Source: an uncultured virus (IMG/VR IMGVR_UViG_3300032093_000023) (Duplodnaviria; Heunggongvirae; Uroviricota; Caudoviricetes). From it: 64,000 nucleotides of DNA. Positions 20,982 to 35,079 of this stretch are shown here, in pieces. A program made the position numbers and the translations under genes. The stretch lies in the IMG/VR virus record IMGVR_UViG_3300032093_000023, one strand, 5' to 3'. Under the pieces are notes generated by a model that was given only the letters and a program-made list of their open reading frames with translations, was not told the DNA's origin and did no database searches. Within the stretch, counting starts at the first letter, position 1. Each line of letters opens with the position of its first letter.

Positions 20982-21167
20982 TCAAATTTCAGGTGTTAAA
21001 TCTTTAGAAATATCTTTAATTTCTAAATCGGATTCTGGAGTAATTATGGGTGCTTGCCCTTCTAATGAAGAATCCCACCAAACTATCCCTTTTTCTTTTA
21101 CCCAATATAGAAATTCTGTAATTTCCATTTGATTAGGTTTTGATTTTAAATCATATACTAGTTTCAT
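20982..21167 (-). CDS. Hypothetical protein
   Basis: ORF track. Confidence 0.45.
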   Translation of the reverse strand: MKLVYDLKSKPNQMEITEFLYWVKEKGIVWWDSSLEGQAPIITPESDLEIKDISKDLTPEI

Positions 21168-21168
21168 A

Positions 21169-21381
21169 TTATTCTTCAGTTATAGGACTAGTCCCAGTTA
21201 ATAAATAAAACTTATTGATTTTCTCAGCCATGATTAACTTCTCATTGATATGATCCATATCCTCATAATCTAGTTTATCGTTATAGTGTTTCTTAGTTAC
21301 ACCCATTTTAAGGTAAATTGATCCATCAGGTAATATACCTATGATTTGATGATCGTTGAAATTTTTAGATTTTGTTCTCAT
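21169..21381 (-). CDS. Hypothetical protein
   Basis: ORF track; TAATG coupling. Confidence 0.5.
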   Translation of the reverse strand: MRTKSKNFNDHQIIGILPDGSIYLKMGVTKKHYNDKLDYEDMDHINEKLIMAEKINKFYLLTGTSPITEE

Positions 21382-21851
21382 TATTTAATATTTAATTGTT
21401 GCATTAGTTTAATTAATTCTGATTTGTTTTTAATTTTAAATCTCATAACCCATTCTCCAGGTACATAAGATGAATATGCTTGTATTTTAATAACCCAATT
21501 ATCATCTTGTTGAATTAACCAATAATGAATACCATTGTTAAATCCAAACTCTTCTGTTTTTTGAAAAGTCATTAATTGTCTTCCTGTAAATGGTGATTTT
21601 TTAGAATCTCTTAATTCCCAACCTAAACTTTCTATATCAGATTGGTCTAGGTATTTAACTCTAACTGTTCTAATTCCTCCTAATAATTCTTCTTCAAACC
21701 AACTATCTGATCTTTCATAATCTGGTCCATCAGATTTATAATCTTGTATTCTCATTTTAGATTCTTCCCACCTATCTCCATTCATATATTCATATCCAAA
21801 TCCTACATGAAACTCTTCTATTGTAGGTGTATAGTATAAGTTATTTTCCAT
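21381..21851 (-). CDS. Hypothetical phage protein
   Basis: YYTPTIEEFHVGFGYE ... RVKYLDQSDIESLGW ... IKNKSELIKLM pattern familiar from Bacteroidota phages. Confidence 0.6.
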   Translation of the reverse strand: MENNLYYTPTIEEFHVGFGYEYMNGDRWEESKMRIQDYKSDGPDYERSDSWFEEELLGGIRTVRVKYLDQSDIESLGWELRDSKKSPFTGRQLMTFQKTEEFGFNNGIHYWLIQQDDNWVIKIQAYSSYVPGEWVMRFKIKNKSELIKLMQQLNIK

Positions 21852-22016
21852 TTGTATAATCTTTAGGTAATGTTGATTTATTAGATTGTTTAATTATTGT
21901 TTGGTGTAAAGCTTCTTCTAGTCTATAGGTTATAATATCATACAGATGTTTATGTTTAATCCTAATATCTACAGGTTCATCTACCCAAAACTGTTGTTGT
22001 TTATATTCATTGTTAC

Positions 22017-22199
22017 TCATTGTTGCTCATTGTTAAATAATTGTTCTACTTTAATTCTTATTTCTACTTTACCACTAGCACCATTCTTAAATTCTTTCCA
22101 CTCTTCAATAGGTAAAAATTTAGATTTACTTCCTAAGTAAATAGTTACATTTCCTAATGGGTGATTATATACAAACATTATTGGGTCTTGTTCTACCAT
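22017..22199 (-). CDS. Hypothetical protein
   Basis: ORF track, co-directional. Confidence 0.45.
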   Translation of the reverse strand: MVEQDPIMFVYNHPLGNVTIYLGSKSKFLPIEEWKEFKNGASGKVEIRIKVEQLFNNEQQ

Positions 22200-22408
22200 G
22201 AGAATTGTTCTTTAGGTCCATTAATAAAGTATTCTTCTAATATCTTGTTTCTAGCTATAATGTAATCAGCACCAGTTCCTTCTACTCTAGTAGCAGGTTT
22301 AATAATATTAGTATATTCTACAGTAGTAACTGTATGTCTTATGACTTCTCCTAACATAATAGTAGTATGTTCTAAGTCTGGAGTACGGTGTAATATCTTA
22401 ATTTCCAT
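22193..22408 (-). CDS. Hypothetical protein
   Basis: ORF track; promoter directly upstream. Confidence 0.5.
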   Translation of the reverse strand: MEIKILHRTPDLEHTTIMLGEVIRHTVTTVEYTNIIKPATRVEGTGADYIIARNKILEEYFINGPKEQFSW

Positions 22409-22412
22409 GATC

Positions 22413-22444
22413 TAAAGGTAACTAATAATTAACTAATTACCAAA
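22413..22444 (-). promoter_or_regulatory. Bacteroidota-type promoter, near-leaderless
   Basis: Minus strand TTTG-N20-TACCTTTA, 4 nt before the ATG of 22193..22408. Confidence 0.65.
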
Positions 22445-22593
22445 TACTCGTCCCAATTATCTTATATTTTGGGGACATAGAATATAGCTTTAATAGGTTT
22501 CATTTTATGAAAAATTCATGCAAAGTTGTAACAAAAGTAGTAAGTATTTGTTACACGGGAATGTGTATTATAGTGCATAAATGGGTATGAGAT

Positions 22594-23148
22594 TTAAGAT
22601 TTATCAGTGTTAGATAGTTTAAGGTATTCTACGGCTTTTAATAATAAAATTGAATTATCCTTAAACATACCCAATCCTGAATTACAATTAGAGCATAATA
22701 AACCCCTTACTAATCCTGTATCATGACAGTGATCTATTGATAATTTTCTATGGTAAGTATTACAAATCAAGCAGTTACCTTGTTGAGTACTATACAATTT
22801 ATCATAATCTTCTATCGTCATATCATAGTTAGATTTTAATTTTTGTTTTCTCTTTCTTAGAGACTCTTTAATAGGGTTAGCTTTTCTTTTTATTGCTTTG
22901 TATTTATTTCTGCATACTTTACAACTAGATTGAGTACTTCCTGTATTTTTATTGATAATTGAAAAACAAGATATATCTTTAGATTCTGTACATGTGGTGC
23001 ATATTTTTAAACCCTCTACAATAGGTTTATGTGGTTTATGACCATATCTACATTCTTTACAAAACCCTAAATACCCGTCTTTGTTTACTGAACACTGATT
23101 AAAATCAGTAAGTTCTTTTTCTACTTTACATTTTTTACATATTTTCAT
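22594..23148 (-). CDS. Endonuclease VII-like (His-Me finger) nuclease, probably a free-standing homing endonuclease
   Basis: Two CxxC...CxxC zinc repeats plus QQGNCLIC...IDHCHDTGLVRGLLCSNCNSGLG. Confidence 0.85.
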   Translation of the reverse strand: MKICKKCKVEKELTDFNQCSVNKDGYLGFCKECRYGHKPHKPIVEGLKICTTCTESKDISCFSIINKNTGSTQSSCKVCRNKYKAIKRKANPIKESLRKRKQKLKSNYDMTIEDYDKLYSTQQGNCLICNTYHRKLSIDHCHDTGLVRGLLCSNCNSGLGMFKDNSILLLKAVEYLKLSNTDKS

Positions 23149-23152
23149 AATA

Positions 23153-23185
23153 TAAAGATAAGCATTATTTAGTTATTTTTACAAA
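23153..23185 (-). promoter_or_regulatory. Bacteroidota-type promoter for the endoVII gene
   Basis: Minus strand TTTG-N21-TATCTTTA, 4 nt before the ATG. Confidence 0.65.
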
Positions 23186-23318
23186 TATTAATCACCAAAA
23201 ATTTTATTTTTTTTCAAAATTTTCAATGTATATAAGGATTTCCAGCACCCCCAATTTCCATCCCCCACTAAACTTTGAGAGAAAATCATTTCCTTTATAA
23301 CTTTAAAACTATCACATT

Positions 23319-23555
23319 ATGAAAACTTTATTAGAGTATTTAAAAGAATTAGGTGCAGTTAAAGCATCTATTATTGCTGGTCCAAATGGTAAATTTATTA
23401 GCTATGAATTAGCTAGTGGTGCTAAAGCTACATTACCAGTTGGTAAAAGGTCTTATGATGGTACATTATCAACATTTAATGTATTGATTACTGAAGAGGG
23501 ACAAGCTATTGCTACTGTCAACTCTTATGTAGAAGAGGAGACTATGTCATTATAG
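23319..23555 (+). CDS. Hypothetical protein, first gene of the rightward early region
   Basis: ORF track; AT-rich leader. Confidence 0.6.
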   Translation: MKTLLEYLKELGAVKASIIAGPNGKFISYELASGAKATLPVGKRSYDGTLSTFNVLITEEGQAIATVNSYVEEETMSL

Positions 23556-24066
23556 TATTGAGTGAGAGCCTAGTGCTCTCCTCTTTATTTAATTCTAATT
23601 CAAATCCAATTAACCAATTAACCTTATATATTATGTTAACTCTAACAATAATTCCAAACTTATCTAACAAATTATCTGATAATCAGTTAGTTAAATCAAT
23701 ATTCATTTGCTTAGCAATGGATTTTGTTATACTATTAGCTTGTATTAATCTTTAACAACACTTAAATATATAACTCTCTCCAACTGCTTTGGAGTTAATT
23801 GAGATGTTTACATCTTAGTTAAGCTTGTGGAATAGACCACTGAGGAGAGTTTATATTTAATTTAGAGTAATCTACTAGTTTAGTAGGAATTAATGCTCTG
23901 AAAGGCTTGAAAACATTGGGAATTATGGAATAGTAGATGGAGTACACTCCTCTCCCTCACCTTTTAACCCTAATCCTAACTTATCCTATAATTATATCCT
24001 CTTATATACACATAGCTTAATTAACAACTTATAAACCAATTATTAACCTCTAAAAACTATCCAACT

Positions 24067-24258
24067 ATGAACACTTTACAACGTACTACTAAAAATGGTA
24101 GACCAATTATCAACAGACAAACTAAATTACCTGAATATGCATTCAGTGTACATAACAGATTAAATACTGTTAAACGTGAATTAGGTTATGTAAACAACAA
24201 ACCTAGTCATGACCAAATTTGGGCATCAATATGTGTTGGTGTCTCACTATTAACCTAA
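24067..24258 (+). CDS. Hypothetical protein
   Basis: ORF track. Confidence 0.45.
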   Translation: MNTLQRTTKNGRPIINRQTKLPEYAFSVHNRLNTVKRELGYVNNKPSHDQIWASICVGVSLLT

Positions 24259-24607
24259 CTAAATATCTATTACATATTCCACTGTAAACCATTATATAAC
24301 AAGGACTTGTGCAAGTATCAAGTATTATATTAATGTTTGTGGGTATGTAATAGATTATCAATATTAAACAGTTAAAGAGTGGCAGATGTAGAAATACATG
24401 CAGATTTAGTTTATACTATATGTTTCCGCCTAACTGTTTATACCAAATTAATCATTTAAAACTAAATAATTATGAAAACATTTCTATTATTCTGTAAAAT
24501 GTTACATGTTAAAGAAAATACACATGAATATAATTACAGAAAAATTTACCCTAAATTAAATGCTTTAACAAATTAAATAAATTATTAACTAATTAAAAAC
24601 TATTACA

Positions 24608-24853
24608 ATGGAATCAAACTTATTACACATCATTGGATTCATATCCATATTATTCTATTTAGGTAATATGATAGCAGACTTTTGTATTGAAAGACCATTA
24701 TCTGCACACATTGGATATGGATTAATATGTATTGTTACGTCATATTATATTAATCAAATATTAGGACTTACAATATCATTTGTATTTGTAGTCTATTCAT
24801 TACTAATTCTAACTATTTATGTTGAATCAATTAAATCTAAACGTCATGCCTAA
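24608..24853 (+). CDS. Small multi-pass membrane protein
   Basis: Three hydrophobic segments. Confidence 0.5.
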   Translation: MESNLLHIIGFISILFYLGNMIADFCIERPLSAHIGYGLICIVTSYYINQILGLTISFVFVVYSLLILTIYVESIKSKRHA

Positions 24854-25123
24854 ACTAACTAAAGAAGAAATACATTATTACAGATTTCATCAAATATGTT
24901 TATCTGAATACACATACCTATATGCTTCAGTATTATACTCTTAAACAACATTAAACAATCAACAAGCTCTCATATAATCTAATTAGCTATTTATAGCATT
25001 CAGACTTGGTCTATACATTAGTTATATCATCTTGTTAATTGTTGGATAGTCTTGACATAGACTTAAACTTTGTCAAACAATTAATAAATCAATAAATCAA
25101 TTAACAATTAAAAACAAGAAATC

Positions 25124-25552
25124 ATGTCAAAATTAATCGTAAAATCAAACCCAAACACAGGCTTAGTAATCAATGTATCTGAAAAAACTCCTAACTGGGG
25201 TTCAGTAATGGTAGCAGAAGACAGTTTTGTAATTAATGGTGGAATCATTAATAAACAAACTCGTACAGCTTTCTTTAGAGCTGAATTAGCAACTTTAAAT
25301 GCTATGAACTTGGCAGCAGGTTCAGAATTTCCTATTGAAGGAAAATTAATCCATCGTGAAGCTACTGCTCCTTTCTATAAAGGACAAAAGCCTAAAACTC
25401 AAGGTAAGGATGGTGGTGTATTATTATACAATGGTATGCCTATTTATCGTGAAACAGTATTTACTTCAGAAATAGCTGAAGTAGATTTGTTAATCAAACA
25501 TACTTCTGTAGCTCCAGTTGCAGTAAGTTCTCAACAACCACTTAACTCTTAG
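25124..25552 (+). CDS. Hypothetical beta-rich protein
   Basis: 142 aa; strong AT-rich leader ttaacaattaaaa. Confidence 0.6.
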   Translation: MSKLIVKSNPNTGLVINVSEKTPNWGSVMVAEDSFVINGGIINKQTRTAFFRAELATLNAMNLAAGSEFPIEGKLIHREATAPFYKGQKPKTQGKDGGVLLYNGMPIYRETVFTSEIAEVDLLIKHTSVAPVAVSSQQPLNS

Positions 25553-25562
25553 TAGTTAGTGT

Positions 25563-25608
25563 GAACTAGTTTTGGAATAAAGGAGGGTTCGATTCCCTCC
25601 ACTAGTTC
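25563..25608 (+). ncRNA. tRNA minihelix-like element (acceptor stem plus T arm only)
   Basis: gaactagt/actagttc stem enclosing ggaggg-TTCGATT-ccctcc; no D arm or anticodon arm. Confidence 0.5.
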
Positions 25609-26410
25609 TTATATTGAGTTTATGTGATAGTTTCCTCAATACAGTTTAAGTATTCTGTAAAAATACTCCTTGTAGGTTAGTTGGTCAAACCTTACTTTAA
25701 AATATTGTAACATTAGTTACTAAAGATGATAGTTAGGTGGTGTATTTGGTAGTTCTTATACAACATACTATACGTGAGGTGGTTTAATATCTTTCCACCA
25801 GTTAGTCCAAAACTAAAAGATAATATTATATAACTTGTTGAAACAAAGTCTTACTAACTTTAAAGTAAATAAGTTATATTTTATTTAAAACATTAAAACA
25901 ATAAATTATGAAAAATATAATAAAGCTTAAAGAAGTAATGTCATTTAATGAATGTCAATATTTACTTAAAATGAATCCTTGGCAATATGATAATAAAATA
26001 CTTTACAAAAGAAGAAAGAGACTTAAAAATAAGTATTTTTATTTAATAATTGAAAGAGGTCATAATCATTGTACAAAAAATTAATCAGAGTAACTTTTGT
26101 GATACTGATTAATAATAAACTCTTATCCAATTGTAGAATAAATAGTTCAACTGAATTTAGAACACCTATCTTAAGTAGGAGGTATAGCCAAGGTACAACC
26201 TTGTAAGAGTTTATTTAAAACAAATTAAAATATAATATCCCTAATAAATATTCTAACAAAACTTAGTGGTTGTCCATTAACTTGGTAGTTGTATATAATT
26301 ATTAGTCGTTTTCTCATTATATACACAAATATGAAACCACCAAACAAGTGAGAGGCTTGTTCTTTTTAAATAATTCAATCAAAATATAAATCAACTAAAA
26401 CCTAGAAATC

Positions 26411-26887
26411 ATGAAAGAATCAGTGAAAATCAAATTGCTATTTATAAGCTTAATGCTTATTGTAATGTCTGCATGTGCATTTGCACAACAATCAGGTTTT
26501 GATACTAACATATCTAAAACTAGATCTCAATTAAAACAATTAGAAAAAACTAAAATCAAATTAGATTTATCTGTATTTGTAGATGATCAATCAATTGATG
26601 ATACATCATATGTATTAAATATTGTAAACTACAACAATGGTGTATTAACATCAATGCATGTATCTAACAAATTTGTATTATTTTTAGATTACTCTACTGA
26701 ATATGAAATATCAATAAATTATAAAAATACTAACACTAAAGTAATAATTGTTAATACTGAAGCTACCTACAATAATTGGTATATTGTAACATCTGTTGCA
26801 TTAACTTCAGGTGTAAATGATAGGATTTTAGCAGGTGGAATTAAATTTGATTATGAATTAAACACATTTAAAAAATATAAAAACTAA
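26411..26887 (+). CDS. Exported protein with signal peptide
   Basis: Basic N-terminus, hydrophobic core, AFA|Q cleavage site typical of Bacteroidota. Confidence 0.6.
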   Translation: MKESVKIKLLFISLMLIVMSACAFAQQSGFDTNISKTRSQLKQLEKTKIKLDLSVFVDDQSIDDTSYVLNIVNYNNGVLTSMHVSNKFVLFLDYSTEYEISINYKNTNTKVIIVNTEATYNNWYIVTSVALTSGVNDRILAGGIKFDYELNTFKKYKN

Positions 26888-26932
26888 TTAACGAGTCAGA
26901 TTAATTTCTGACTCACTTTAAAATAAAATACT

Positions 26933-27346
26933 ATGAATAAAATATTTAAAATTAAATTATTGACAATATTATTCTCAATAATTTTAACCAACACATTTAG
27001 TCAATCAATAACAACTGAAATAGCACAATATTGTGATTATGATACAACATTAGATTTATGGAAAGATTGTACAATGGATTATAATCATACTTCATTATTT
27101 GTAATCAATGAACAAGAAACAATGATTACACATATAACAATAGATAATAAATCAACATATTATATTACTGATAAAACAGTAGAGTTTAATGAAAAAAAAG
27201 AGAAAGTATGGATGTATACAGTAAATAGTGATTTAGGTAAACAATATATTGTTAAAATAAACCCTATTGCTAGAACTATATTATGTGTATATTCTGTAGA
27301 TAATGAAATTAAAGGAACTACTTTTACAATTAAATCAATATTTTAA
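26933..27346 (+). CDS. Exported protein with signal peptide
   Basis: Hydrophobic core then TFS|Q cleavage site. Confidence 0.6.
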   Translation: MNKIFKIKLLTILFSIILTNTFSQSITTEIAQYCDYDTTLDLWKDCTMDYNHTSLFVINEQETMITHITIDNKSTYYITDKTVEFNEKKEKVWMYTVNSDLGKQYIVKINPIARTILCVYSVDNEIKGTTFTIKSIF

Positions 27347-27597
27347 TATTGGTAATTTTGAGATTGGAGTTAAATGAGCAATTAATTACTTATAACGATT
27401 GAGTATAAATGAAGTAAACGTGAACAAAGAAGCCTATAGAAGTTGAGCCATTAATCAACCATGTGGAGGTGTAATAAACCACAGAAAAAACACCACGTTT
27501 ATTTCTTTTATACTTTGTTATAAAATTGTTTTAATGTTTTAACGTTCTCCAGCTTGTTGCAGTTGCAGATAATTAATTACTTAATAAAACAAAAATT

Positions 27598-27858
27598 ATG
27601 GATATTACAGAAAGAATACATAACGCAATAGAGTGGGCAAATAAACGCCTAACATTACAAGGTCAAGAACTTTCACAAGAACAAAAAAACTATTTAACTT
27701 TTGCCTTATCACAGAATTTTACTAACAATTACCAAGCCTTGCAATTGCAACAAACCGATGTTATAAAATCGGAGTGTGAACACGATTGGAAATGTATATC
27801 ATATATTTCACCATCAGGTGTTTGGACTTGCACTAAATGTAAGAAAACGGTAGGGTGA
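27598..27858 (+). CDS. Cassette-array ORF spanning hairpin 2, Cys-rich C-terminus
   Basis: Starts in the hairpin loop; LQLQQTDV is the translated right arm; CEHDW..C..WTCTKC tail. Confidence 0.6.
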   Translation: MDITERIHNAIEWANKRLTLQGQELSQEQKNYLTFALSQNFTNNYQALQLQQTDVIKSECEHDWKCISYISPSGVWTCTKCKKTVG

Positions 27859-27876
27859 CTGTAAAAACATAAAATT

Positions 27877-28143
27877 ATGATAACATTAACTTATAAAAAA
27901 GAAGTGACAAAAAAGAAAACTATAAAACGAATTGTAGTTGATTTTATTAATAACTATAAATACAAATGGATTCACCAAAATTTTACTGCCAATTGGAGCA
28001 ACTTAAAATTATATCCGAGGTTTTGGTTAAACAAAAGTATCGACACTCCAAACTTTAATCATTGGAGTTTTACAATTCGTTTTTTATGGTGGTATTTTGG
28101 AATACAAAAGAAATTTATTAATGAGCAGAATTTAGACGATTAA
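27877..28143 (+). CDS. Cassette-array hypothetical protein
   Basis: ORF ends just before hairpin 3. Confidence 0.55.
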   Translation: MITLTYKKEVTKKKTIKRIVVDFINNYKYKWIHQNFTANWSNLKLYPRFWLNKSIDTPNFNHWSFTIRFLWWYFGIQKKFINEQNLDD

Positions 28144-28146
28144 CTA

Positions 28147-28675
28147 GTGCGGTGGGGTGCAATTACCGCTAACGGAATCAAGCTATGCGCTGTTAGCGCG
28201 GATTGTGCGTTGAAAATAGCGCATAGGTTGTGTTAGCGGTTAGTTGCACAGCGAAGGAATAGAAACAATTTAAACAATATACAAATGGAAAAATTAAGAG
28301 TAAACAGATTTAATGATAGAGTAGCAGAAATAATATACTTCATCATCGAGCCAAGATTAAATTTAGTGTACGGAATTGTTGGCGAAACAGAAACCAAGCT
28401 AAAATACTATGATGTGTGCATAGCCCCTTTTTGGAGTGATTTTCAAAACACAACAGTTTATGAAATGGCAGTTAATCCAACAGGAGAACGCTATGAAACT
28501 GGTGAGCCTGCCACTATCAAAAAGGAATTATTAACGGAGGGTATTTTCGCCAACAAACTTGATATTACTAAAAGCAGAGATGAAGTATATTATTTGCTTA
28601 CAGGTAAAAGAAAGAAAGCTATTTACACGAATGTTATCGGGTAACCCGTGCGGTAGGGTGCAATTACCGCTAACG
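28147..28675 (+). repeat. 28 bp direct repeat (28147-28174 and 28648-28675, one mismatch)
   Basis: gtgcggtggggtgcaattaccgctaacg versus gtgcggtagggtgcaattaccgctaacg; partial third copy cggtagggtg at 27847-27856. Confidence 0.9.
28285..28644 (+). CDS. Cassette-borne hypothetical protein
   Basis: Single ORF between hairpins 3 and 4. Confidence 0.65.
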   Translation: MEKLRVNRFNDRVAEIIYFIIEPRLNLVYGIVGETETKLKYYDVCIAPFWSDFQNTTVYEMAVNPTGERYETGEPATIKKELLTEGIFANKLDITKSRDEVYYLLTGKRKKAIYTNVIG

Positions 28676-28758
28676 TTTTGCGTATAAGAGCCGTTTTTTC
28701 AATGGATTTTATACGCTGTTATAGGTAGGTTGTAACGAATGTTTAATTAGTACAAAAT

Positions 28759-28890
28759 ATGAAAAATAAGATTATGAAAATTATTAGAATTGAAAACAAT
28801 AAAAAGAAGTGGAAAGTAAAAAGATTGAAAGAAGGATTACTTTTCTATGAACGAATAGAAAAAAAGTTTGTTATGTTAAAATGTTTCTAA
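28759..28890 (+). CDS. Cassette-borne 43 aa basic peptide (not in ORF track)
   Basis: MKNKIMKIIRIENNKKKWKVKRLKEGLLFYERIEKKFVMLKCF between hairpins 4 and 5. Confidence 0.45.
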   Translation: MKNKIMKIIRIENNKKKWKVKRLKEGLLFYERIEKKFVMLKCF

Positions 28891-28982
28891 ATGATACGCA
28901 ACTTACCTATAACGGCAGCGAATTGGCGACAGGCCGTAAATAAAACACAGCATATTGGCATTAACGCTCGGCTTGCGCCAAT

Positions 28983-29291
28983 TTGTTGTTACCACTTCGT
29001 TTTGCAAGCGTGGGCAAAATAAAAATTAAAAAGATGATTGAAAACATTAAAGAACATTTATCAGATTACAAATGGATTTACATTATTACCATTGTATTAT
29101 TATCACTAATTGGATGGTGGATTTGGTATGAATATGCTTATCCGTGTGTTTATGGACACTATGAAGAACAATGGCAACAAACATATATTTATGCAGCAGA
29201 TGGTAGTATGACACCAATGGGAGGTTATTGGCAAGATGTATTCATTTGTGATTGTAGAACAGTACGCGATAGCGTGTCGGATGCAAAATGA
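28983..29291 (+). CDS. Cassette-borne single-pass membrane protein (probable start at the internal MIENIK)
   Basis: TM segment WIYIITIVLLSLIGWWIW; lies between hairpins 5 and 6. Confidence 0.6.
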   Translation: MLLPLRFASVGKIKIKKMIENIKEHLSDYKWIYIITIVLLSLIGWWIWYEYAYPCVYGHYEEQWQQTYIYAADGSMTPMGGYWQDVFICDCRTVRDSVSDAK

Positions 29292-29359
29292 GTGGTAACG
29301 TGCCGCAGCCTTATTTAGTGCGGGCTTAAAAGCACTATGTTAATTTAAAACCGAATATT

Positions 29360-29527
29360 ATGAATAGTGAAAATGTGTCCAACGAAGCCGAAAACCCCGC
29401 ATTGAATAAGGGTGATGTTAGTGGCAGTCAATTCTGTCCTAATTGCGGTAAAGAACACGATAGCGATGAATGGAATGGATATTGTTCAAAAATATGTTGG
29501 TGGGGATTTCCTGTTGATTGCCACTAA
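29360..29527 (+). CDS. 55 aa ORF spanning hairpin 6, zinc-finger-like C-terminus (not in ORF track)
   Basis: MNSENVSNEAENPALNKGDVSGSQFCPNCGKEHDSDEWNGYCSKICWWGFPVDCH; its stop is the TAA of the next TAAC core. Confidence 0.6.
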   Translation: MNSENVSNEAENPALNKGDVSGSQFCPNCGKEHDSDEWNGYCSKICWWGFPVDCH

Positions 29528-29561
29528 CGTTTTGCAGCTAATAAATCTTAAATAAACAACT

Positions 29562-29879
29562 ATGAAACAAATTATTATAATAATTATAACATTATTAACA
29601 TTAAATTCTTGTGATACACCAGGAACTACAACAATGAGATTAACAGGCACTGAAGCAAATTTACCTGAAGAATTAAAAGGATTAAAAATATATAATATTG
29701 CTACAGGTAGTGGTAATTATGTTAAAGTAGCAATACTAGATAATAAAGTTAATTCTACAACTTATAAAATTGGTAAACATGCGAAATCAACAATTATATT
29801 AAATACTAAAATAGAACAAGCGTATAAAGTTAGACGTTTAATATCTGAATCAGATAGTATACTTGTATTTTTAAAATAA
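29562..29879 (+). CDS. Putative lipoprotein
   Basis: Hydrophobic leader and lipobox LNSC. Confidence 0.65.
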   Translation: MKQIIIIIITLLTLNSCDTPGTTTMRLTGTEANLPEELKGLKIYNIATGSGNYVKVAILDNKVNSTTYKIGKHAKSTIILNTKIEQAYKVRRLISESDSILVFLK

Positions 29880-30170
29880 TCAATAAACAAACAATAAATA
29901 TGAAAAGTAAATTTAAACAATTAGAATGCTTAATTGCATGGGCACAATTTTATTCAAATCATAAAAACTTAGCTATGCCTACTAATCGAGATGAGATAAA
30001 ATTTAACAAATTACAAAAAGAAATTGAAAAACTTAAAACACAATTAATAGATTAATTATGGCAATTATTATTGAAAAGATAGACATTGATAGAACAGTGT
30101 TTAAGAAAACTTCTGAAGAAAAGAAGAAACTTAAAGAATTAAAAAGACTTTATAAACTAAGAATTAAGTA

Positions 30171-30359
30171 ATGACACTAGAACGACATATTGAACTAATA
30201 ACTACAAAGAATATTACATTACTTAACCCAACAATGGAAGAAATGATTTATTGGAGTCAAAGCAATATATTTGTATTTATTAATCTCAAATGTATTGTTA
30301 AAAGTGATAAAATAGATCAAAAGTATAAATTAAGTAAATACAACATTAAATTTAAGTAA
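30171..30359 (+). CDS. Hypothetical protein
   Basis: ORF track. Confidence 0.4.
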   Translation: MTLERHIELITTKNITLLNPTMEEMIYWSQSNIFVFINLKCIVKSDKIDQKYKLSKYNIKFK

Positions 30360-30494
30360 CTCTAAAGGTTACAACATACACTAGGTGCATCATTACAAAT
30401 ATGAAAAGAGCTTGTATATAGATTTGATAGTTTATAATAGTGAATCTAATAGTAATAATTAAATAGATACTAGTAATAGTGAAGCTAATTAAAA

Positions 30495-30752
30495 TTGCAA
30501 GATTTAATGTGTTGCTTAAAACTCGCAGCTATTATAAATAAAAACCATAAATTTAATAATATGAAAGAAATATTACAAGAAATATTCTATAGGTATATGA
30601 TGATTATGTGCGCTTTACATTTATTTTCATTTGGTATAATAATAATGCCTTTTGTAACATATAGCGAAGGACATCCTTATTACGCAATACTTTGTGCAAT
30701 AATTATATACCCATCAAGTTTTATATTATTAGAAATATTTAAAAAAGAATAA
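30495..30752 (+). CDS. Two-TM membrane protein (probable start at the internal MKEILQ)
   Basis: Two hydrophobic helices. Confidence 0.5.
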   Translation: MQDLMCCLKLAAIINKNHKFNNMKEILQEIFYRYMMIMCALHLFSFGIIIMPFVTYSEGHPYYAILCAIIIYPSSFILLEIFKKE

Positions 30753-30753
30753 T

Positions 30754-31065
30754 ATGTCAGTAAAATGTTTATGTATAAACAATAAATTAAGACCTAAAGA
30801 AATACTTCCTCAAAATTGGATTAATGAAGGTACAGAATATACAATAAACTATGTATATTACCATGTTAATCAAGGAATACAAGGAGTTACTTTAGATGAA
30901 GTACAAACTAAATCAGAAATATATTCAAGTTATAGATTAGATAGATTTGCCTTCACTAAAGAAGGTATTGAACAACTAATTGAATTAATGCAAGATTGTA
31001 CTGAATTAGGTAAATTAGATATTCAAGAATTAATTGAAGAAAATAATTTAGAATTAATTGAATAA
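30754..31065 (+). CDS. Hypothetical protein
   Basis: KCLCIN...P...WINEGTEYT...RF pattern. Confidence 0.6.
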   Translation: MSVKCLCINNKLRPKEILPQNWINEGTEYTINYVYYHVNQGIQGVTLDEVQTKSEIYSSYRLDRFAFTKEGIEQLIELMQDCTELGKLDIQELIEENNLELIE

Positions 31066-31386
31066 AACATTAAAAACAATATAATTAAACATGGGGTAAT
31101 TAACCATGACTTTAATAGTGCTGACCCTAAGGAATTATACAATTGGCCAAATTTGAGTGATTACTGGGAGGAAATTTATAAATATAGATGATTTGAAAGA
31201 AATAACTATATGAAGATAAAAGTACAGAACATAAATCTTATGAAAATTGATTATGTAAAGCAGATTATATTGTTTTTATAAAATACTCAGTGTACCCAGA
31301 GTTTAAATGGGTGCTATTGGTCTCTGAAGAAAAGGGAACACGGTTAGCTGCAAGTTAAGCTATGACTGATGGAAAGACATCAAACA

Positions 31387-31504
31387 GTTCAAGTGGTGGA
31401 AATGGAAGACATACCGAGGTGTCGGCGAGTAGGACTGGTAATGCAGTTTAAACCAATTAGGCCAAGAGGCTACTCATTTGAAGGTTCGATTCCTTCCTTG
31501 AACA
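31387..31504 (+). ncRNA. tRNA-like RNA with a Leu-type D arm, no valid anticodon loop and an oversized variable region
   Basis: Acceptor gttcaag/cttgaac; D arm gtg-gaaatggaaga-cat; ccga-ggtg-tcgg tetraloop arm; gagtag/ctactc-closed insert; T arm gaagg-TTCGATT-ccttc. Confidence 0.65.
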
Positions 31505-31611
31505 CTAATTAAACAAATAAGTTCTGTGAATGGTACAGAATAATTTAGATCCTCATTACAGAGTTAATGTGTATAAGCTTAGAGTGTTTAATTATCTCTA
31601 GACGTCAGAGT

Positions 31612-31643
31612 AAACCACTTAGGAAAGTCCTGAGTGGTTTTTA
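31612..31643 (+). terminator. Intrinsic terminator-like hairpin
   Basis: aaaccacttagga-aag-tcctgagtggttttt. Confidence 0.6.
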
Positions 31644-32014
31644 ATTTAAAAACTAATAAAATGGAAGATGAATTTATTACATTTGAAATAGCTAAATTAG
31701 CTAAAGAAAAAGGGTTTGTTTTAAAAACAGGAATTAATTATTATAGTGATAAGGAAAATGATATGGCAATGTCCTATGATTTAAATAATATAAATCATTA
31801 TCCTTGTGAAACTCAAAGTTTATTACAACGTTGGTTAAGAGAAATACATGGTTTACACATACATTTATATTTTATTGATCATATATTAGGATATAATTCA
31901 ATTATTACAAATCTTAAAACTAATACTAAATTATTTAAAAGTAAACCTTTTATAAAATACGAACAAGCTTTGGAAGAAGGACTTTATGAAGCACTTAAAT
32001 TAATTAAAAACTAA
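31634..32014 (+). CDS. Hypothetical phage protein (probable start at MEDEFI)
   Basis: ITFEIAKLAKEKGF ... TQSLLQRWLRE ... YEQALEEGLYEALKLI pattern familiar from Bacteroidota phages. Confidence 0.65.
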   Translation: MVFNLKTNKMEDEFITFEIAKLAKEKGFVLKTGINYYSDKENDMAMSYDLNNINHYPCETQSLLQRWLREIHGLHIHLYFIDHILGYNSIITNLKTNTKLFKSKPFIKYEQALEEGLYEALKLIKN

Positions 32015-32033
32015 TCACTAAAACAAAGAAATT

Positions 32034-32372
32034 ATGAATAAACTACTCGATACATACTGTCGTATGTTATACTTTTGTAAAGGCAAGCCTACAAACTTAA
32101 GTACTTTAAGTAACTGGGAATTAAATGGTATATTATTACACATTAATAAATATCCTCAAGGACTTTTAAATGGATATGATAAATCAGAATATATTACAGC
32201 AGTTAAGTACATACTTAATGAAAGATTACATTGTAGAGATTATAAACGTAATATTATTGAAACTAGATTAGCTAATAAAGCATTAGAAACTAGTAAACAA
32301 TTAACTGATTTAATATTACAATCAATGATTAATACAGAAAAGAAATCTAGAAGAAAATTAATACTAACTTAA
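32034..32372 (+). CDS. Hypothetical protein
   Basis: ORF track. Confidence 0.55.
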   Translation: MNKLLDTYCRMLYFCKGKPTNLSTLSNWELNGILLHINKYPQGLLNGYDKSEYITAVKYILNERLHCRDYKRNIIETRLANKALETSKQLTDLILQSMINTEKKSRRKLILT

Positions 32373-32378
32373 ATAATT

Positions 32379-33536
32379 ATGAAAAATAAATTTGAAGTAG
32401 GCAAATGGTATAAAGTGAATAATGAATATACTAAGTTTCATTCTTTAGGTTCTGAAGGCGTGTTTTATGGTGTTGACCATATTTATAATGATAAATACCG
32501 AAAATCTATTTATGACAGCCCAACTTATATTTTTAGAAAAGTAGATAACCCAATTTTATTAACTGATTTATCTGAAATTCAACAATATTTACCAGATGGG
32601 CATCCAGATAAATTTGTTAATAAGTCTGAAACTTCTCCATTACCTGAAAAATGGTATTTAGAAGTTACTAAAGATAATTTAAGTTATGTTAGTTCTAAAA
32701 GAGCTTGGAGTTTTGATATTATAGGATATATTCACTCTTCTTTAAGTCACAATATACATAATTATTGGTTTCATAATAATGAACCTTTAAAAGGATATAC
32801 TGAAATAACTTTAGAACAATTTAAAGAATATGTTGTAAAAGATGTTACAAGTAAAAAAGTTGAACCTGAAATACCTGAATATGTTGAGTGTATACAAAAT
32901 GGTAATAATGCTACAATGCACCAAAAGTATTGTGGTGTTGATGTTGTAAAAGGTACTATTTATAAGGTTACTGAAAAAAGCATGCCTAATAAAGGAGCTC
33001 AATCTGAAGCTTATGTACTTGAAGGTGGTGGTGTAGGCTATTGTCTAGGATTCAAACCTTCAACTAAAGAAGCTTTTGATGCTCAGAATAAGCCTAAAGA
33101 ACAATCTATTGAAGAAATATTAGAAATCTGCAAGAAGAAATATCCTATTGACACTGAAATTAAATCTGTTTATGGTAAACGTGGTGTTATAACTGGCAAT
33201 TATCATATATTTGATAGAAATAACATTTTTGCCACTAGTGATAGTAAAGGAGATTTAATTTTATATCGAGGTTCAACTAAAGAATACGCTGAAATCATTT
33301 CATTACCTGAACCTATTAAATACCCTGATTTATCATTTAAAGATTTTGGAGTTCATATACATAAAGGTAATTATCAAGAATTAGAAAATATAATATGGGA
33401 GGGTAATATGACACCTGGTAATCATTTAAATTCTTTTTTTAATACTAAAAGTAAATCAAATGATTTAGAGTTTCAATATCCTGTAATTAATGTAAGAAAT
33501 AAAAAGAAAAGTAAATTAATAATCATAAACCAATAA
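32379..33536 (+). CDS. Modular early protein (several short repeated domains)
   Basis: KFEVGKWYK, LSEIQQYLPDGHPDK, LPEKWY...GYTEITLEQFKEYV and STKEAFD modules, some shared with other ORFs. Confidence 0.65.
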   Translation: MKNKFEVGKWYKVNNEYTKFHSLGSEGVFYGVDHIYNDKYRKSIYDSPTYIFRKVDNPILLTDLSEIQQYLPDGHPDKFVNKSETSPLPEKWYLEVTKDNLSYVSSKRAWSFDIIGYIHSSLSHNIHNYWFHNNEPLKGYTEITLEQFKEYVVKDVTSKKVEPEIPEYVECIQNGNNATMHQKYCGVDVVKGTIYKVTEKSMPNKGAQSEAYVLEGGGVGYCLGFKPSTKEAFDAQNKPKEQSIEEILEICKKKYPIDTEIKSVYGKRGVITGNYHIFDRNNIFATSDSKGDLILYRGSTKEYAEIISLPEPIKYPDLSFKDFGVHIHKGNYQELENIIWEGNMTPGNHLNSFFNTKSKSNDLEFQYPVINVRNKKKSKLIIINQ

Positions 33537-33547
33537 ACAAAAACAAC

Positions 33548-33898
33548 ATGGAAGTAACAAGTAAATCAGTAAGTAAATTTGTAGCTGCAACAATTGCATT
33601 TTTAACAGGAGATTCTGATACTGCAACAGCATTAAAGAATGAGAGATTAGCTCAAGCTAGTATCAAAGGTCAATTAAGTGCTTTAGAAGGTGCTTTAGTT
33701 AATGCTGAAGTAGATGTAGAGAATGCTAAAGAGAATTTAACTAAAGCAATTTATCCTACAGTATTAATTAGTAATCAACAAGGTTATTATAACAATATAG
33801 TTGGTGCTCAATCAAAGTTAGATGATGCTGAAGAAGCTTTAGCAAACATTAAGAAATCTATTGATTACGCTCAAGCATTGTTAAAAGATAAATTTTAA
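33548..33898 (+). CDS. Coiled-coil protein
   Basis: Ala/Leu/Glu heptad pattern. Confidence 0.6.
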   Translation: MEVTSKSVSKFVAATIAFLTGDSDTATALKNERLAQASIKGQLSALEGALVNAEVDVENAKENLTKAIYPTVLISNQQGYYNNIVGAQSKLDDAEEALANIKKSIDYAQALLKDKF

Positions 33899-33919
33899 TC
33901 TAGGCAATTAAAATAAGTA

Positions 33920-33985
33920 ACACTCATAGCTCAATTGGTTAGAGCACTAGATATAGCGATGCAGGTTCGAGTCCTGTTGAGTGTT
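33920..33985 (+). ncRNA. tRNA-like RNA with truncated anticodon arm
   Basis: Acceptor acactca/tgagtgt; D arm gctc-aattggtta-gagc; only cta-gata-tag in place of the anticodon arm; T arm gcagg-TTCGAGT-cctgt. Confidence 0.7.
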
Positions 33986-33988
33986 CAA

Positions 33989-34256
33989 AAAGATGTGAGG
34001 TAAAGACACCGCTGGATGGGTTGTTGTTAAAGGGCTGAGGAAGTATACACCTCGTAATCTTTTGATTGTTTGATATGGTATTAAGTGCTGTTGTGGGAAA
34101 CTGCAATAGAATACCTAAATCACCCATTAAAAGTAAGAAACCTTTCAGGACCGAGTCGTAAGTCACAACATCCTAGCTGGGTTCTACAATTGACTAGATG
34201 AAGAAGTCCGACCAAAATCGCATGGAACATAGTAAGCGTAGATAACTCACATCTTT
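33989..34256 (+). ncRNA. Putative ~270 nt structured non-coding RNA
   Basis: Closed by aaagatgtgag/ctcacatcttt (11 bp); GC-richer than flanks; no plus-strand ORF in the track. Confidence 0.5.
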
Positions 34257-34280
34257 AAAATTAACTATTTAACTTAAATT

Positions 34281-34640
34281 ATGAAATTAGAAGATGTTAT
34301 TGCAGGACAATATTATGCTGCACATTATCCAGGAGGAGAAAATCCTACTATTATTAAAGCTACTCACGATAAAAGTTTCAAACAAGCTTCAGGGATATAC
34401 TATCGCGAATTACAGGATAATTATAATTATTTAAGCAGTAATGCATTTAGTTGTACTGATAAATTAAGATTAGCAACAGAAAAAGAAATTCATTGGTTAG
34501 ATCTATCTATAAAAAATAACTATATTGTAGACTATGAAGTAGCTATGGAATCATTTGCTAAAGAAAAACCTATTACTTATTCTAATGAACCAGATCCTGA
34601 ATTAGCAGAAATATTAAAGAAATTATTAAACTTAAACTAA
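34281..34640 (+). CDS. Hypothetical early protein (modular family)
   Basis: RLATEKEIHWL module; amphipathic C-terminal ELAEILKKLL. Confidence 0.6.
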   Translation: MKLEDVIAGQYYAAHYPGGENPTIIKATHDKSFKQASGIYYRELQDNYNYLSSNAFSCTDKLRLATEKEIHWLDLSIKNNYIVDYEVAMESFAKEKPITYSNEPDPELAEILKKLLNLN

Positions 34641-34648
34641 AAACTATT

Positions 34649-34867
34649 ATGAAAAAGAAATTAACTAAAAGACAACCTTTATCTGAAGCTATTAGACAAC
34701 AAGCTAAATTACATGCTAAGTATAAAGAATACTCTTTAAAGACTGAAGAAGAATTAACTGAAATGTATCCTTTACTTGGTGGAGGTTATCGTGAAGTATG
34801 TTTCCAAGTAATTAGAGAGAAACATTTTGCTAAAATGGAACAAGATTTAGAAGGGGAGGTAAAGTAA
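34649..34867 (+). CDS. Hypothetical protein
   Basis: ORF track. Confidence 0.5.
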   Translation: MKKKLTKRQPLSEAIRQQAKLHAKYKEYSLKTEEELTEMYPLLGGGYREVCFQVIREKHFAKMEQDLEGEVK

Positions 34868-35079
34868 TGATAACTAAAGAAGAAGTAAATCAAATTATTA
34901 ACAAACCTAAACCATCTTATGAGGATAAAATTAATGTAATTGCTAAATATATCTTTGATTTAAAACAAGAAGATATTTCAGTAGTTAAGATTAATCCTCC
35001 TCAAAATGATGTAATGGAAGCAATCATGGAGCATATGTTTACCGTGTCATCAAATTATTATCACCGTGGAGAACATTAA
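34867..35079 (+). CDS. Hypothetical protein
   Basis: ORF track; TAATG coupling. Confidence 0.5.
   Translation: MITKEEVNQIINKPKPSYEDKINVIAKYIFDLKQEDISVVKINPPQNDVMEAIMEHMFTVSSNYYHRGEH

Follow-up and report, generated by a model that had tools for sequence, protein, structure and literature searches.

Introduction

Integrons are generally seen as belonging to bacteria and as relying on a single specialised integrase. Classical integrons (IntI, attI and attC; class 1 and Vibrio chromosomal) hold tandem cassettes between imperfect palindromes of the form ...AAC/GTT..., and each cassette has ends that are complementary to one another and not to those of its neighbours. One end of the array has a terminal site and a tyrosine recombinase from the Xer/IntI clade, and orphan arrays without the enzyme exist. 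The insert of IntI is considered necessary for recombination of hairpins. At attP of the CTX phage, a single integration site for the chromosomal dif, XerCD uses a single DNA strand folded into a hairpin, whereas the sites described here form cassette arrays.

Clusters of predicted attC sites that lack an integrase (CALINs), with methyltransferase cargo, have been found in lytic phages (Qi et al. 2023, Front Microbiol, PMC9892861). In the part of that report available to us, the elements were treated as ordinary integron sites and tested with IntI1, and P12002L_attC1 was the sole one of six sites without a verified IntI1 recombinant. The T4-type PeSL cassettes (Arbiol et al. 2010, PMC2839356; Comeau et al. 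2014, PMC4122927) are repeated stem-loops around small non-essential early genes, with modular shuffling and possible mini-circles; each PeSL is a promoter plus a terminator, and the exchange goes by sequence homology.

Here we analysed 64,000 nucleotides of an uncultured virus (IMG/VR IMGVR_UViG_3300032093_000023), called the window throughout. It holds what is apparently an undescribed integron-like array of a different design, in a crAss-like freshwater phage in which an enzyme of its own is missing. A sequence-only reading of the window had known of no such description in crAss-like phages. That claim stands in part, as integrase-less attC clusters in virulent phages have been published, including, in the portion of Qi et al. 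2023 (PMC9892861) available to us, one element of the family described below. Subscription journals aside, we found no description of the site family or of its link to an Xer-like recombinase. If the reading offered here is true, it would provide a concrete mechanism for the fast turnover of small early and anti-restriction phage genes, account for near-identical genes in unrelated phages, and test whether single-stranded DNA in folded form needs the IntI insert for its recombination. With sites and enzymes that are both short and defined, this question is directly testable at the bench.

Results and Discussion

Hairpin elements and cassettes of the array

Seven hairpin elements (E1-E7) of the form TAACG...TGTTA, six whole and one truncated, were found in the window between 27393 and 29549 (Table 1). 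TAACG occurs 30 times in the 64 kb, with 11 of the 30 within 27300-29600, and its reverse complement CGTTA occurs 18 times in the window and not once within 27300-29600. The bare pattern TAACG-N20-50-TGTTA had 7 matches against 2.8 expected, 4 of 100 shuffles reached 7, and by itself this pattern is not significant. TAAC and GTTA bound all six complete elements, which matches the boxes of classical attC sites (R'' ...AAC, R' GTT...). No tRNA gene was found in 24000-33000, and no Rfam family matched in 26500-30500.

The sequence-only reading had described seven TAACG and six TGTTA motifs with imperfect palindromes between them in a block richer in GC than its flanks. The motif positions and inner stems were found again, and the GC content is 0.29-0.40 inside the array and 0.20-0.26 in the adjoining DNA. 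The last element, previously placed at 29523-29540, actually runs to 29549. There the array ends in a truncated core followed by unrelated genes, with no terminal TAAC plus AT-rich site and no Xer-like recombinase gene. Since the right end is cut inside a core, the right boundary is unrelated to GTT.

Each segment with paired ends contains, as had been claimed, one small ORF in the same orientation, on the + strand (Table 1). Two ORFs start inside a hairpin loop. The ORF 27598-27858 starts in the loop of E2 and runs on through the right arm and GTTA, and the ORF 29360-29527 (55 aa, with a weak zinc-ribbon match) starts in the loop of E6 and reads the GTT in frame as valine. Two units have probably fused to give the segment that lies between E2 and E3.

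Table 1. Elements and cassettes of the array in window coordinates. The TAACG of each element starts at its first coordinate; R1 is the covariance model described in the text, and energies are for DNA duplexes between the right (R) and left (L) flanks of the numbered elements.
Feature	Position	Strand	TGTTA start	Description
E1	27393..27520	+	27516	128 nt; 21-bp imperfect inner stem; R1 45.1 bits, E 5e-8
E2	27540..27763	+	27759	224 nt, long loop; R1 borderline, 16.9 bits, E 0.058, partial span
E2-E3 segment	27760..28173	+		Unmatched ends; tail of ORF 27598-27858 and ORF 27877-28143
E3	28170..28235	+	28231	66 nt; R1 36.1 bits, E 4.5e-6, at exactly these coordinates
Cassette B	28232..28674	+		GTTA to TAAC, paired ends (R3-L4, -16.8 kcal/mol); ORF 28285-28644 (119 aa, no family)
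E4	28671..28721	+	28717	51 nt; R1 33.7 bits, E 1.5e-5
Cassette C	28718..28913	+		Paired ends (R4-L5, -13.0 kcal/mol); ORF 28759-28890 (43 aa)
E5	28910..28991	+	28987	82 nt; R1 42.0 bits, E 2.4e-7
Cassette D	28988..29299	+		Paired ends (R5-L6, -17.1 kcal/mol); ORF 29034-29291 (85 aa, no family)
E6	29296..29420	+	29416	125 nt, commonest length class; R1 61.4 bits, E 1.7e-11
Cassette E	29417..29528	+		Paired ends (R6-L7, -15.2 kcal/mol); remainder of ORF 29360-29527
E7	29525..29549	+		Left part of an element; cut within core

Complementarity between the ends of a cassette

The inner-stem arms are 90% complementary in E1 (27402-27422/27494-27514) and 82% complementary in E6 (29306-29327/29393-29414), and the core folding z-scores of E1 to E6 were -3.3, 0.2, -6.3, -3.9, -2.0 and -1.8. 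The bulge is one-sided by our detector, with 3-9 nt on the left and 0-7 nt on the right. A first detector that used the folding energy of the whole element was too noisy and was dropped.

It had been claimed from the letters that the sequence after a right end is complementary to the sequence before the next left end, and that hairpins 4 to 6 do not match their own flanks and hairpin 3 does. Our duplex energies agree with each of these statements. The offset pairs gave -13.0 to -17.1 kcal/mol (Table 1), compared with a mean of -4.37 kcal/mol (sd 1.29, minimum -11.3) when GTTA and TAAC flanks of the window were paired at random 3000 times, and the own-flank duplexes R4-L4, R5-L5 and R6-L6 gave -4.9, -4.8 and -6.0 kcal/mol. 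In cassette C, the arms at 28715-28732 and 28899-28916 are 89% complementary. E3 pairs with its own flanks at -16.8 kcal/mol because its left flank is a copy of that of E4 (a 47-nt direct repeat, 81% identical). Both flanks of E3 are of the B type and the whole E3 site is therefore paired in place, with a native fold of -31.3 kcal/mol when the flanks are included. No offset pairing was found for E1-E2 and E2-E3 (-3.8 and -4.7 kcal/mol).

When the cassettes were circularised in silico, the junctions of E4-E6 folded 8-13 kcal/mol better than in their native context, in line with the earlier statement that the full stem exists only in the excised circle. Arrays of unrelated phages show the same complementarity of cassette ends: of 33 cassettes that lie between consecutive elements, 26 match at 13 or more of 20 end positions. 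Pairing that completes the stem only in the circle is what classical integron cassettes show, but over 7 bp there and 15-19 bp here. The positions that are not Watson-Crick pairs are G.T on the gene-sense strand, with 25 G-to-A and 3 A-to-G differences between cassette ends.

Inverted repeats of 15-19 nt that start with GTTA and end with TAAC around each cassette could also be read as the terminal repeats of small transposon- or MITE-like units, each gene being moved by a transposase or an HUH enzyme. However, the repeats differ from cassette to cassette and covary, whereas a transposase would need a constant end, and the units are strictly tandem. Neither the window nor any of four complete array-bearing phages yielded a transposase or HUH family, and the enzyme linked to the sites (see below) is a tyrosine recombinase. 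We consider the transposon-like reading highly improbable.

The elements belong to a large family of viral sites

The covariance model R1 was built solely from seventy elements of 120-130 nt from other viral contigs, where they lie upstream of the recombinase genes described below. The alignment of the 70 elements has 17 inner-stem pairs, 15 of which show compensatory changes, and one G.T pair is kept in 68 of the 70. With the filters off (the default filters returned no match), R1 found E6, E1, E5, E3 and E4 in the window at E values of 1.7e-11 to 1.5e-5, all on the + strand, and its best background match in 20 kb scored 13.4 bits. At least 121 stretches of viral contigs matched in a pattern scan. 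The elements of the window are members of a large family of sites, one that is separate from the attC sites of classical integrons.

The phages that bear such arrays have no protein family common to all of them (blastp 1e-5). The phage databases had no match with the array region or with the surrounding 20 kb, and the neighbouring 385-aa protein used as a query matched a single contig (G001).

The site family is linked to a small Xer-like tyrosine recombinase

The arrays of other contigs are followed, 0.1-1.2 kb downstream of their ends, by the gene of a small Xer-like tyrosine recombinase. One such array-linked gene is at L070:8004-8834. PF00589 matched in 8 of 35 array-bearing viral records and in 1 of 14 array-free records, and in 7 of the 8 array records a gene of 228-302 aa follows the last element in the same orientation and at a distance of 0.45-1.1 kb, with spacing and placement worked out by hand from the contig coordinates. 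In these seven phage loci the enzyme gene stands behind the array and is co-directional with the cassettes; in the bacterial loci L250 and L253 it is also co-directional and stands ahead of the cassette genes. L250 is from Flavobacterium difficile, and its enzyme gene is at 7713-8825.

The array-linked enzyme is encoded in 380 viral contigs. Among the best 80 of these 380 recombinase relatives, same-strand elements lie upstream in 45 (at least one) and 37 (at least two) of the 48 loci with at least 3 kb upstream, and downstream in 6 (at least one) and 1 (at least two) of the 72 loci with at least 3 kb downstream, counts that include near-duplicates and two seed contigs and overstate the independence of the loci. 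No locus among the same 80 has two or more opposite-strand elements. A co-occurring tyrosine recombinase, which the sequence-only reading had proposed to look for, therefore exists in the family. In the enzyme-bearing loci, the last cassette ends in TAAC and is followed by an AT-rich site and then by the recombinase gene. Against TIGR02249, the model for integron integrases with a cut-off of 265 bits, the array-linked recombinases reached 86-216 bits, and each match was split in two with approximately model positions 180-238 left out.

PF00589 had no match among the window ORFs of at least 100 aa, in contig G001, which reaches about 15 kb beyond the window, or in the record of L004, a contig with a variant of the array. 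With no such enzyme in the window or in G001, the array is an orphan, which agrees with the original description of an integron-like array without a recombinase in view. The recombinase is likewise absent from four near-complete array-bearing phages (G002 and G004-G006), and activity in trans is therefore purely something that we infer.

A 428-aa integrase, gp038, is encoded 1 kb past the final element of Cellulophaga phage phi13:2. It was rejected as an array enzyme and is taken for the lysogeny integrase, having an N-terminal arm-type region, weak Pfam scores and a place near a repressor.

Natural variants have junctions at the conserved boxes

Variants of the array were read from assembled contigs of independent freshwater assemblies, for which only gap-bridging contigs were used and depth gaps were not taken as absence. 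These assembled contigs showed no circle and no read-level excision junction. The core of E3 and cassette B are missing exactly in L004 and in contigs of the runs X11 and X12, whose joins skip 501 bases. The junction lies within a 20-nt repeat ending in TAACG; the 501-bp deletion sits between direct repeats of 20-28 nt and could be due to ordinary homologous recombination. Two X11 joints (26958>29569 and 27536>29571) were not counted, having 22 letters on the shorter side.

In a contig of run X20, the end of another cassette is joined to E1 exactly at TAAC (27393). In a contig of run X16, a different cassette is joined to the E4 core directly after GTTA (28721), and another cassette end is joined to E6 at 29295. 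Two different phages (G002 and G006) have a common 481-nt cassette with 97.3% identity, bounded by TGTTA/TAACG and with different cores on both sides, and the E4 core also occurs in another phage (L003) with both flanks different. The junctions between modules share only 5-7 nt. A search for the same cassettes in different orders with junctions exactly at G|TT had been suggested as a check, and natural variants do differ by cassettes, with junctions at the conserved boxes. The proposed crossover at G|TT holds only in so far as the junctions are at the boxes, as the TAAC side is used at least as often and the terminal site follows TAAC. In four related Cellulophaga phages, some of the block boundaries are at TAAC and others are at start codons or in opposite-strand genes.

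L004 continues with a full E7, one more cassette and a 126-nt element that has the start of a methyltransferase gene in its loop, and contigs of the runs X11, X12 and X20 run past 29549 and supply the right arm that E7 lacks in the window.

Cores and cassette ends are unlinked on both sides. This is not predicted by a model of integrons with a single crossover and counts against that reading.

These variants bear on whether the sites, though genuine members of the family, form an inert relic here that was acquired once from another phage and is decaying by ordinary deletions. The absence of a recombinase from the window and G001, the cut within the core of E7, the unmatched ends of E1-E2 and E2-E3, the 501-bp deletion flanked by direct repeats and a GC content above that of the flanks are all consistent with such a relic. 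Yet the contigs of four independent runs show various neighbours at the boxes (27393 and 28721), which goes beyond deletions, L004 has further cassettes past E7, and 5 of the 6 sites still score well with R1. A relic is thus unlikely in our view.

Comparison with integrons, CALINs and PeSL cassettes

The array shares with classical integrons the tandem cassettes between palindromes, the pairing of the two ends of a cassette and the orphan state; the family, outside the window, also shares the terminal site and the Xer/IntI-clade recombinase at one array end. The differences that had been noted from the letters (an outer stem of 15-19 nt, an asymmetric bulge and gene starts in loops) were found. 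The outer stem is 15-19 bp here and 7 bp in attC, the bulge is one-sided here while the central spacer is unpaired on both strands there, a conserved G.T pair stands in place of the extrahelical bases that attC has on the strand opposite its genes, and junctions occur on both sides of the hairpin. The recombinase of the family matches TIGR02249 in two pieces below the cut-off, without the IntI-specific insert, and its gene is co-directional with the cassettes, whereas that of classical integrons is divergent. An IntI with its IntI-specific domain beside the array, as in classical integrons, was not found in the window, in G001 or in the record of L004. The attC-like reading that had been proposed also needs changing for the gene strand, as phage genes lie on the folding strand and may start within the hairpin loop, the reverse of the bacterial arrays of the family, in which the folding strand is opposite the genes as in classical integrons.

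The P12002L_attC1 oligonucleotide of Qi et al. 2023 (PMC9892861), in the part of that report available to us, contains the TAACG...TGTTA element at record positions 30008-30056 of Polaribacter phage P12002L, as matched by eye. R1 matches five more elements in this phage, in which HattCI called one family member. That P12002L_attC1 was not recombined by IntI1 excludes IntI1 as the enzyme and says no more than this. An extended outer stem, a dedicated Xer-like recombinase, gene starts in loops and crAss-like phages are not mentioned in the accessible portion of Qi et al. 2023 (PMC9892861).

Compared with PeSLs, only 5 nt are constant here, the stems covary and a site-specific recombinase is linked to the family; a strong promoter plus terminator with exchange by homology, as in PeSLs, was not found by a promoter and terminator scan that excludes Bacteroidota promoters. 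A related possibility is that the hairpins serve a polycistronic early transcript in regulation or RNA processing, for example as RNase III-type sites, as attenuators or in the control of translation, with shuffling as a by-product of general or microhomology recombination, as with the T4-type cassettes. In phages, the strand of the element also carries the longest ORF of the cassette (30 of 30), a start codon lies inside several loops, and the sense-strand G.T, both at the cassette ends and in the inner stem, would be G.U in RNA, all of which would suit an RNA element. The array-bearing phages encode ERF, RecT, NinG or endonuclease VII, and PeSL-mediated shuffling and mini-circles are documented in the available part of Arbiol et al. 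2010 (PMC2839356). However, the 5-7 nt shared at module junctions are too little for homologous exchange, and the pairing is held across the gene and not across the local hairpin. In the bacterial arrays of the family, moreover, the genes are opposite to the element strand in 11 of 11 cassettes, so that the folding strand is antisense to the mRNA, and the family is tightly linked to a tyrosine recombinase. In 27000-30000, sigma-70-like promoters (21 against 17.8 +/- 4.5, by the scan that excludes Bacteroidota promoters) were not in excess, and terminator-like sites (3 against 1.3 +/- 1.0) were not clearly so. We regard RNA elements as an improbable explanation of the array.

A proposed recombination system and its cargo

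We think it likely that the sites of the block recombine as folded DNA, as parts of an integron analogue whose enzyme acts in trans. Each site has conserved TAAC and GTTA boxes that a G.T pair closes, a bulge of 4-5 nt on the left side only and a covarying inner stem. The outer stem of 15-19 bp is whole only once the unit is circularised, because its halves sit at the two ends of a cassette. The sense strand would fold, and a small Xer-like tyrosine recombinase would cut and exchange strands, with the TAAC box used more often than the GTTA box. A unit, made of a hairpin core and the gene behind it, could thus be excised as a circle, lost, gained or reordered. The enzyme gene lies at the array end, behind an attI-like terminal site, in many phages as well as in some bacterial chromosomes. 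The crAss-like phage has no enzyme and its array is truncated, so that recombination would have to occur in trans, by a co-infecting phage or the host. As the conserved G.T pairs are on the mRNA-sense strand, the hairpins may have a role at the RNA level as well.

To a broader proposal, taken as a whole, we give slightly less than an even chance: Bacteroidota phages and some bacterial chromosomes may carry a second, independent kind of integron, in which a plain Xer-like recombinase without the IntI insert would shuffle cassettes at long-stemmed one-sided hairpins. The phage form would be of reversed design, with the hairpin core ahead of the gene and in some cases supplying the gene start, and both hairpin edges could cross over, so that whole genes as well as gene fronts would be swapped. 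Lytic phages without the enzyme would join a shared cassette pool and borrow the enzyme in co-infection or from the host.

The cargo of the family is mainly small unknown proteins, plus DNA methyltransferases and Mom, and suggests swappable early anti-restriction genes.

Hairpin elements and offset pairing in the window

The array of the window is an orphan and is cut; hairpin-cassette arrays of its kind form a widespread family, which has a Xer-like recombinase as its own enzyme. The elements, here E1 to E7 (TAACG...TGTTA, window 27393-29549), had been taken for an integron-like cassette array by the sequence-only reading; the observation was confirmed and the reading is supported, with some details changed. 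A motif search of the window found the seven TAACG and six TGTTA boxes where that reading had placed them. Of the 30 copies of TAACG in the 64 kb, 11 fall within 27300-29600, a range that has none of the 18 copies of the reverse complement CGTTA. The bare spaced box pattern was by itself not significant (7 matches vs 2.8 expected). The inner stems of the elements are real as judged by arm complementarity, and the cores (the hairpins between the TAAC and GTTA boxes) of E1 to E6 had folding z-scores of -3.3, 0.2, -6.3, -3.9, -2.0 and -1.8.

The proposed offset complementarity, in which the sequence behind element n pairs with the sequence ahead of element n+1, was correct by duplex energies for n = 3 to 6. 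The 22 nt after GTTA of element n and the 22 nt before TAAC of n+1 gave -13.0 to -17.1 kcal/mol, whereas the same right flanks with their own left flanks gave merely -4.8 to -6.0 kcal/mol, and 3000 control pairs of GTTA and TAAC flanks, drawn at random from the window, had a mean of -4.37 (sd 1.29) and a best value of -11.3 kcal/mol. Offset pairing was absent from E1-E2 and E2-E3 in the same test. When the cassettes were circularised in silico and folded, as had been suggested, the E4-E6 sites gained 8-13 kcal/mol over their native context. We infer that the window sites recombine as folded single strands, and their exact cleavage point and the source of the enzyme acting on the array of this phage are likewise matters of inference.

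Covariation of the inner stem

Alignment of seventy 120-130-nt elements, all from contigs other than the window, revealed a 17-pair inner stem with compensatory changes in 15 pairs (for example, AU 36 / UA 30 and CG 34 / GC 27). A G.T pair inside this stem (alignment A2, columns 26/139) was kept in 68 of the 70 elements. A second conserved G.T was noticed in the outer stem, 7 nt outside the GTTA box and on the same strand as the first.

A covariance model (R1), built from these seventy elements without window sequence, was run with filters off over window 20000-40000. The model matched E6 with 61.4 bits (E 1.7e-11), E1 with 45.1, E5 with 42.0, E3 with 36.1 at exactly 28170-28235, and E4 with 33.7 (E 1.5e-5); E2 was borderline (16.9 bits, E 0.058), and the best match outside the array in this range had 13.4 bits. 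With default filters R1 had no match in the window. R1 also matched elements of Polaribacter phage P12002L and of two bacterial chromosomes.

The same architecture in other viral contigs

An 18-base piece of the E3/E4 left flank is present, exactly, in five further viral contigs. One of these (L004) is the same phage as the window; the remaining four are different phages (36-68 kb, GC 0.31-0.42), each with its own array. Among the 33 cassettes between consecutive elements in these arrays, 26 show 13 or more matching positions of 20 between their two ends, and the ends vary from cassette to cassette yet covary. The mismatches are non-random: at position 11-12 a G in the right end faces a T in the left end in 22 cases, and in total there are 25 G-to-A vs 3 A-to-G differences. 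Because the mismatches are biased in this way, with G opposite T, the pairing works on the strand reading TAACG...TGTTA.

Scanning a viral collection with one box pattern returned at least 121 stretches, from which 80 loci were retrieved, three being duplicates of others. At least two same-strand elements were found in 49 of the 80 loci and none in 21, and opposite-strand elements numbered 7 across all 80. By length, the elements form classes near 48-49, 58-62, 67-78, 86-93 and 118-130 nt.

Natural variants at the boxes

L004 is 100% identical to the window up to 28174 and the match resumes at 28642, so that L004 is without the E3 core and cassette B (28232-28674). The same 501-base skip is bridged by assembled contigs of two independent freshwater sequencing runs, X11 and X12, with the junction free within a 20-nt repeat ending in TAACG. 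In a contig of run X20, E1 is preceded, with the junction exactly at 27393, by the 3' end of a different cassette, which in L004 stands before a methyltransferase element. One contig of run X16 carries a different cassette right behind the GTTA of E4 (28721) and another cassette's end joined to E6 at 29295, and contigs of X12 and X20 have different cores beside the flank type of E3 and E4 at 28176 and 28229. That flank type surrounds three unrelated ORFs (in the window and in the viral contigs L003 and L006), and the E4 core recurs in L003 with one mismatch and different flanks on both sides. Phages G002 and G006 have in common a 481-nt cassette (97.3% identity, TGTTA to TAACG) between cores that differ on both sides. 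Sequence identity at the module junctions is 5-7 nt only. Several variants join at the boxes, as the sequence-only reading had proposed to check, and speak for the boxes as points of exchange; some boundaries lie elsewhere. Several contig break points lie within cores that are alike only at their start.

The right end of the block had been described as clipped, and E7 of the window is indeed cut inside its core; a complete E7 followed by further cassettes is present in L004 and in contigs of X11, X12 and X20. Two public assemblies of the window phage break within the array: G001 stops within the E6 loop (window 29363) and L004 inside the methyltransferase cassette, as would be expected if strains differ at the cassettes.

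A Xer-like recombinase linked to the arrays

As had been noted for an integrase, no tyrosine recombinase was found in the window. Nor was one found in G001, which matches the window without differences from 29363 to the window end and extends ~15 kb further, or in the array-bearing viral records G002-G006, four of these five being at least 94% complete. In G002 and G004-G006, 119 further ORFs were scanned with Pfam, which gave ERF and NinG as the only recombination functions.

The search for a co-occurring tyrosine recombinase (PF00589) succeeded in other viral records: a strong match was found in 8 of 35 other array-bearing records vs 1 of 14 records without arrays. From contig coordinates, seven of the eight genes lie on the same strand, 0.45-1.1 kb behind the last element. 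Five of these recombinases (267-297 aa, 33-45% identical) retain the catalytic R..K..HxxR..H..Y and reach their highest scores with the XerA model (144-206 bits, against a cut-off of 220), followed by XerD and XerC. The integron-integrase model stayed below its cut-off, matching two stretches only and having no match across the IntI insert region. Among solved structures, XerC-like 4a8e, XerA 5hxy, XerD 1a0p and IntI4 2a3v are the nearest.

Starting from the protein, we found relatives encoded on 380 viral contigs and examined the best 80. Among the 48 of these loci with at least 3 kb upstream of the recombinase gene, 45 have one or more same-strand elements on that side and 37 have two or more, usually at a distance of 140-1200 nt; among the 72 loci with at least 3 kb downstream, the corresponding numbers were 6 and 1, and no locus of the 80 had two or more opposite-strand elements. 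These counts are not fully independent, since they include the two seed contigs and several near-duplicate loci. The sequence behind the last cassette consists of TAAC, a short AT-rich site and the recombinase start, in this order; TAAC and the AT-rich site take the place that attI, read on the folding strand, has in an integron.

Four related Cellulophaga phages were observed to be mosaic upstream of L025 8809-8825 (phi13:2; L026 7709-7725) and conserved from the TAAC-AA-TGTTA-TA-TAAC motif there on; in phi13:2 the motif precedes gp037 and a 428-aa tyrosine recombinase.

Bacterial relatives and known systems

Bacteroidota and other bacterial phyla also encode relatives of the enzyme, in 593 genomic stretches, of which the best 80 were kept. 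In Flavobacterium difficile and Desulfitobacterium sp. Sab5 the recombinase, likewise without the IntI insert, adjoins arrays whose elements are nearly uniform, have the same boxes and show offset pairing of -11.7 to -20.5 kcal/mol. R1 matched five of the nine Desulfitobacterium elements at E <0.001. An integron-like array in a Firmicute was unexpected.

Bacterial arrays adjoining the recombinase
Array	Position	Elements
L250 (Flavobacterium difficile)	9441-16618	nine 126-nt elements, 69-86 bits (R1)
L253 (Desulfitobacterium sp. Sab5)	9705-16308	nine elements: eight 69-73 nt, one 123 nt (pattern detector)

Cassette genes lie opposite to the element strand in the bacterial arrays (11/11) and on the element strand in the phage arrays (30/30). 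Because its genes are opposite to the elements, the bacterial form is laid out like a classical integron, although enzyme and site geometry differ. In the phage form the genes are turned round, so that each hairpin core stands ahead of its own gene. The start codons in the loops of E2, E6 and many other elements are consistent with this position of the core.

Qi et al. 2023 (PMC9892861) reported, from a screen of 10,705 phage genomes, 17 attC clusters without integrase, some in virulent phages. Their P12002L_attC1 oligonucleotide contains (by eye) the 49-nt TAACG...TGTTA element that we detected at P12002L record 30008-30056, and is the single site of six without a verified IntI1 recombinant. 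The PeSL cassettes of T4-type phages (Arbiol et al. 2010, PMC2839356) shuffle genes via homologous promoter-terminator repeats, whereas in the window array neither promoter-like nor terminator-like sites were clearly enriched, in a scan for sigma-70-like promoters and terminators. Full-text searches of the literature outside subscription journals yielded no description of the hairpin-site family or of its link to a recombinase.

Cargo and setting of the array

The cassette ORFs of the window had no convincing protein family. Among 77 ORFs of other arrays there were N6_N4, C-5 and N-6 DNA methyltransferases, Mom and HTH proteins, and most had no match. ORFs with a start in a loop mostly read the right-box GTT in frame as valine, often in ...D/S-V-S-G-S (window 27760, 29417 and others); this held for 7 of 8 such ORFs inspected by eye, the exception being G005 16776. 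The in-frame valine may be a simple consequence of the conserved DNA.

The window phage is crAss-like by Pfam Crass_capsid (E 8e-123) and a crAss tail ring 3/4 protein. The minus strand carries the terminase and portal genes and the plus strand those for a family A DNA polymerase and other replication functions, with the array block where the plus-strand gene run begins. The higher GC content first remarked for the block was borne out (0.29-0.40 vs 0.20-0.26 on each side). Downstream, at 31200-31650, the GC content rises again over a short distance (0.37), and ARAGORN found no tRNA there. Two GIY-YIG/NUMOD homing-endonuclease genes (43184-43921 and 47157-47873) are located amid the replication genes, and a ferritin-like gene (12067-12588, minus strand; Pfam Ferritin, E 5e-22) is located between the portal gene and a capsid-adjacent gene.
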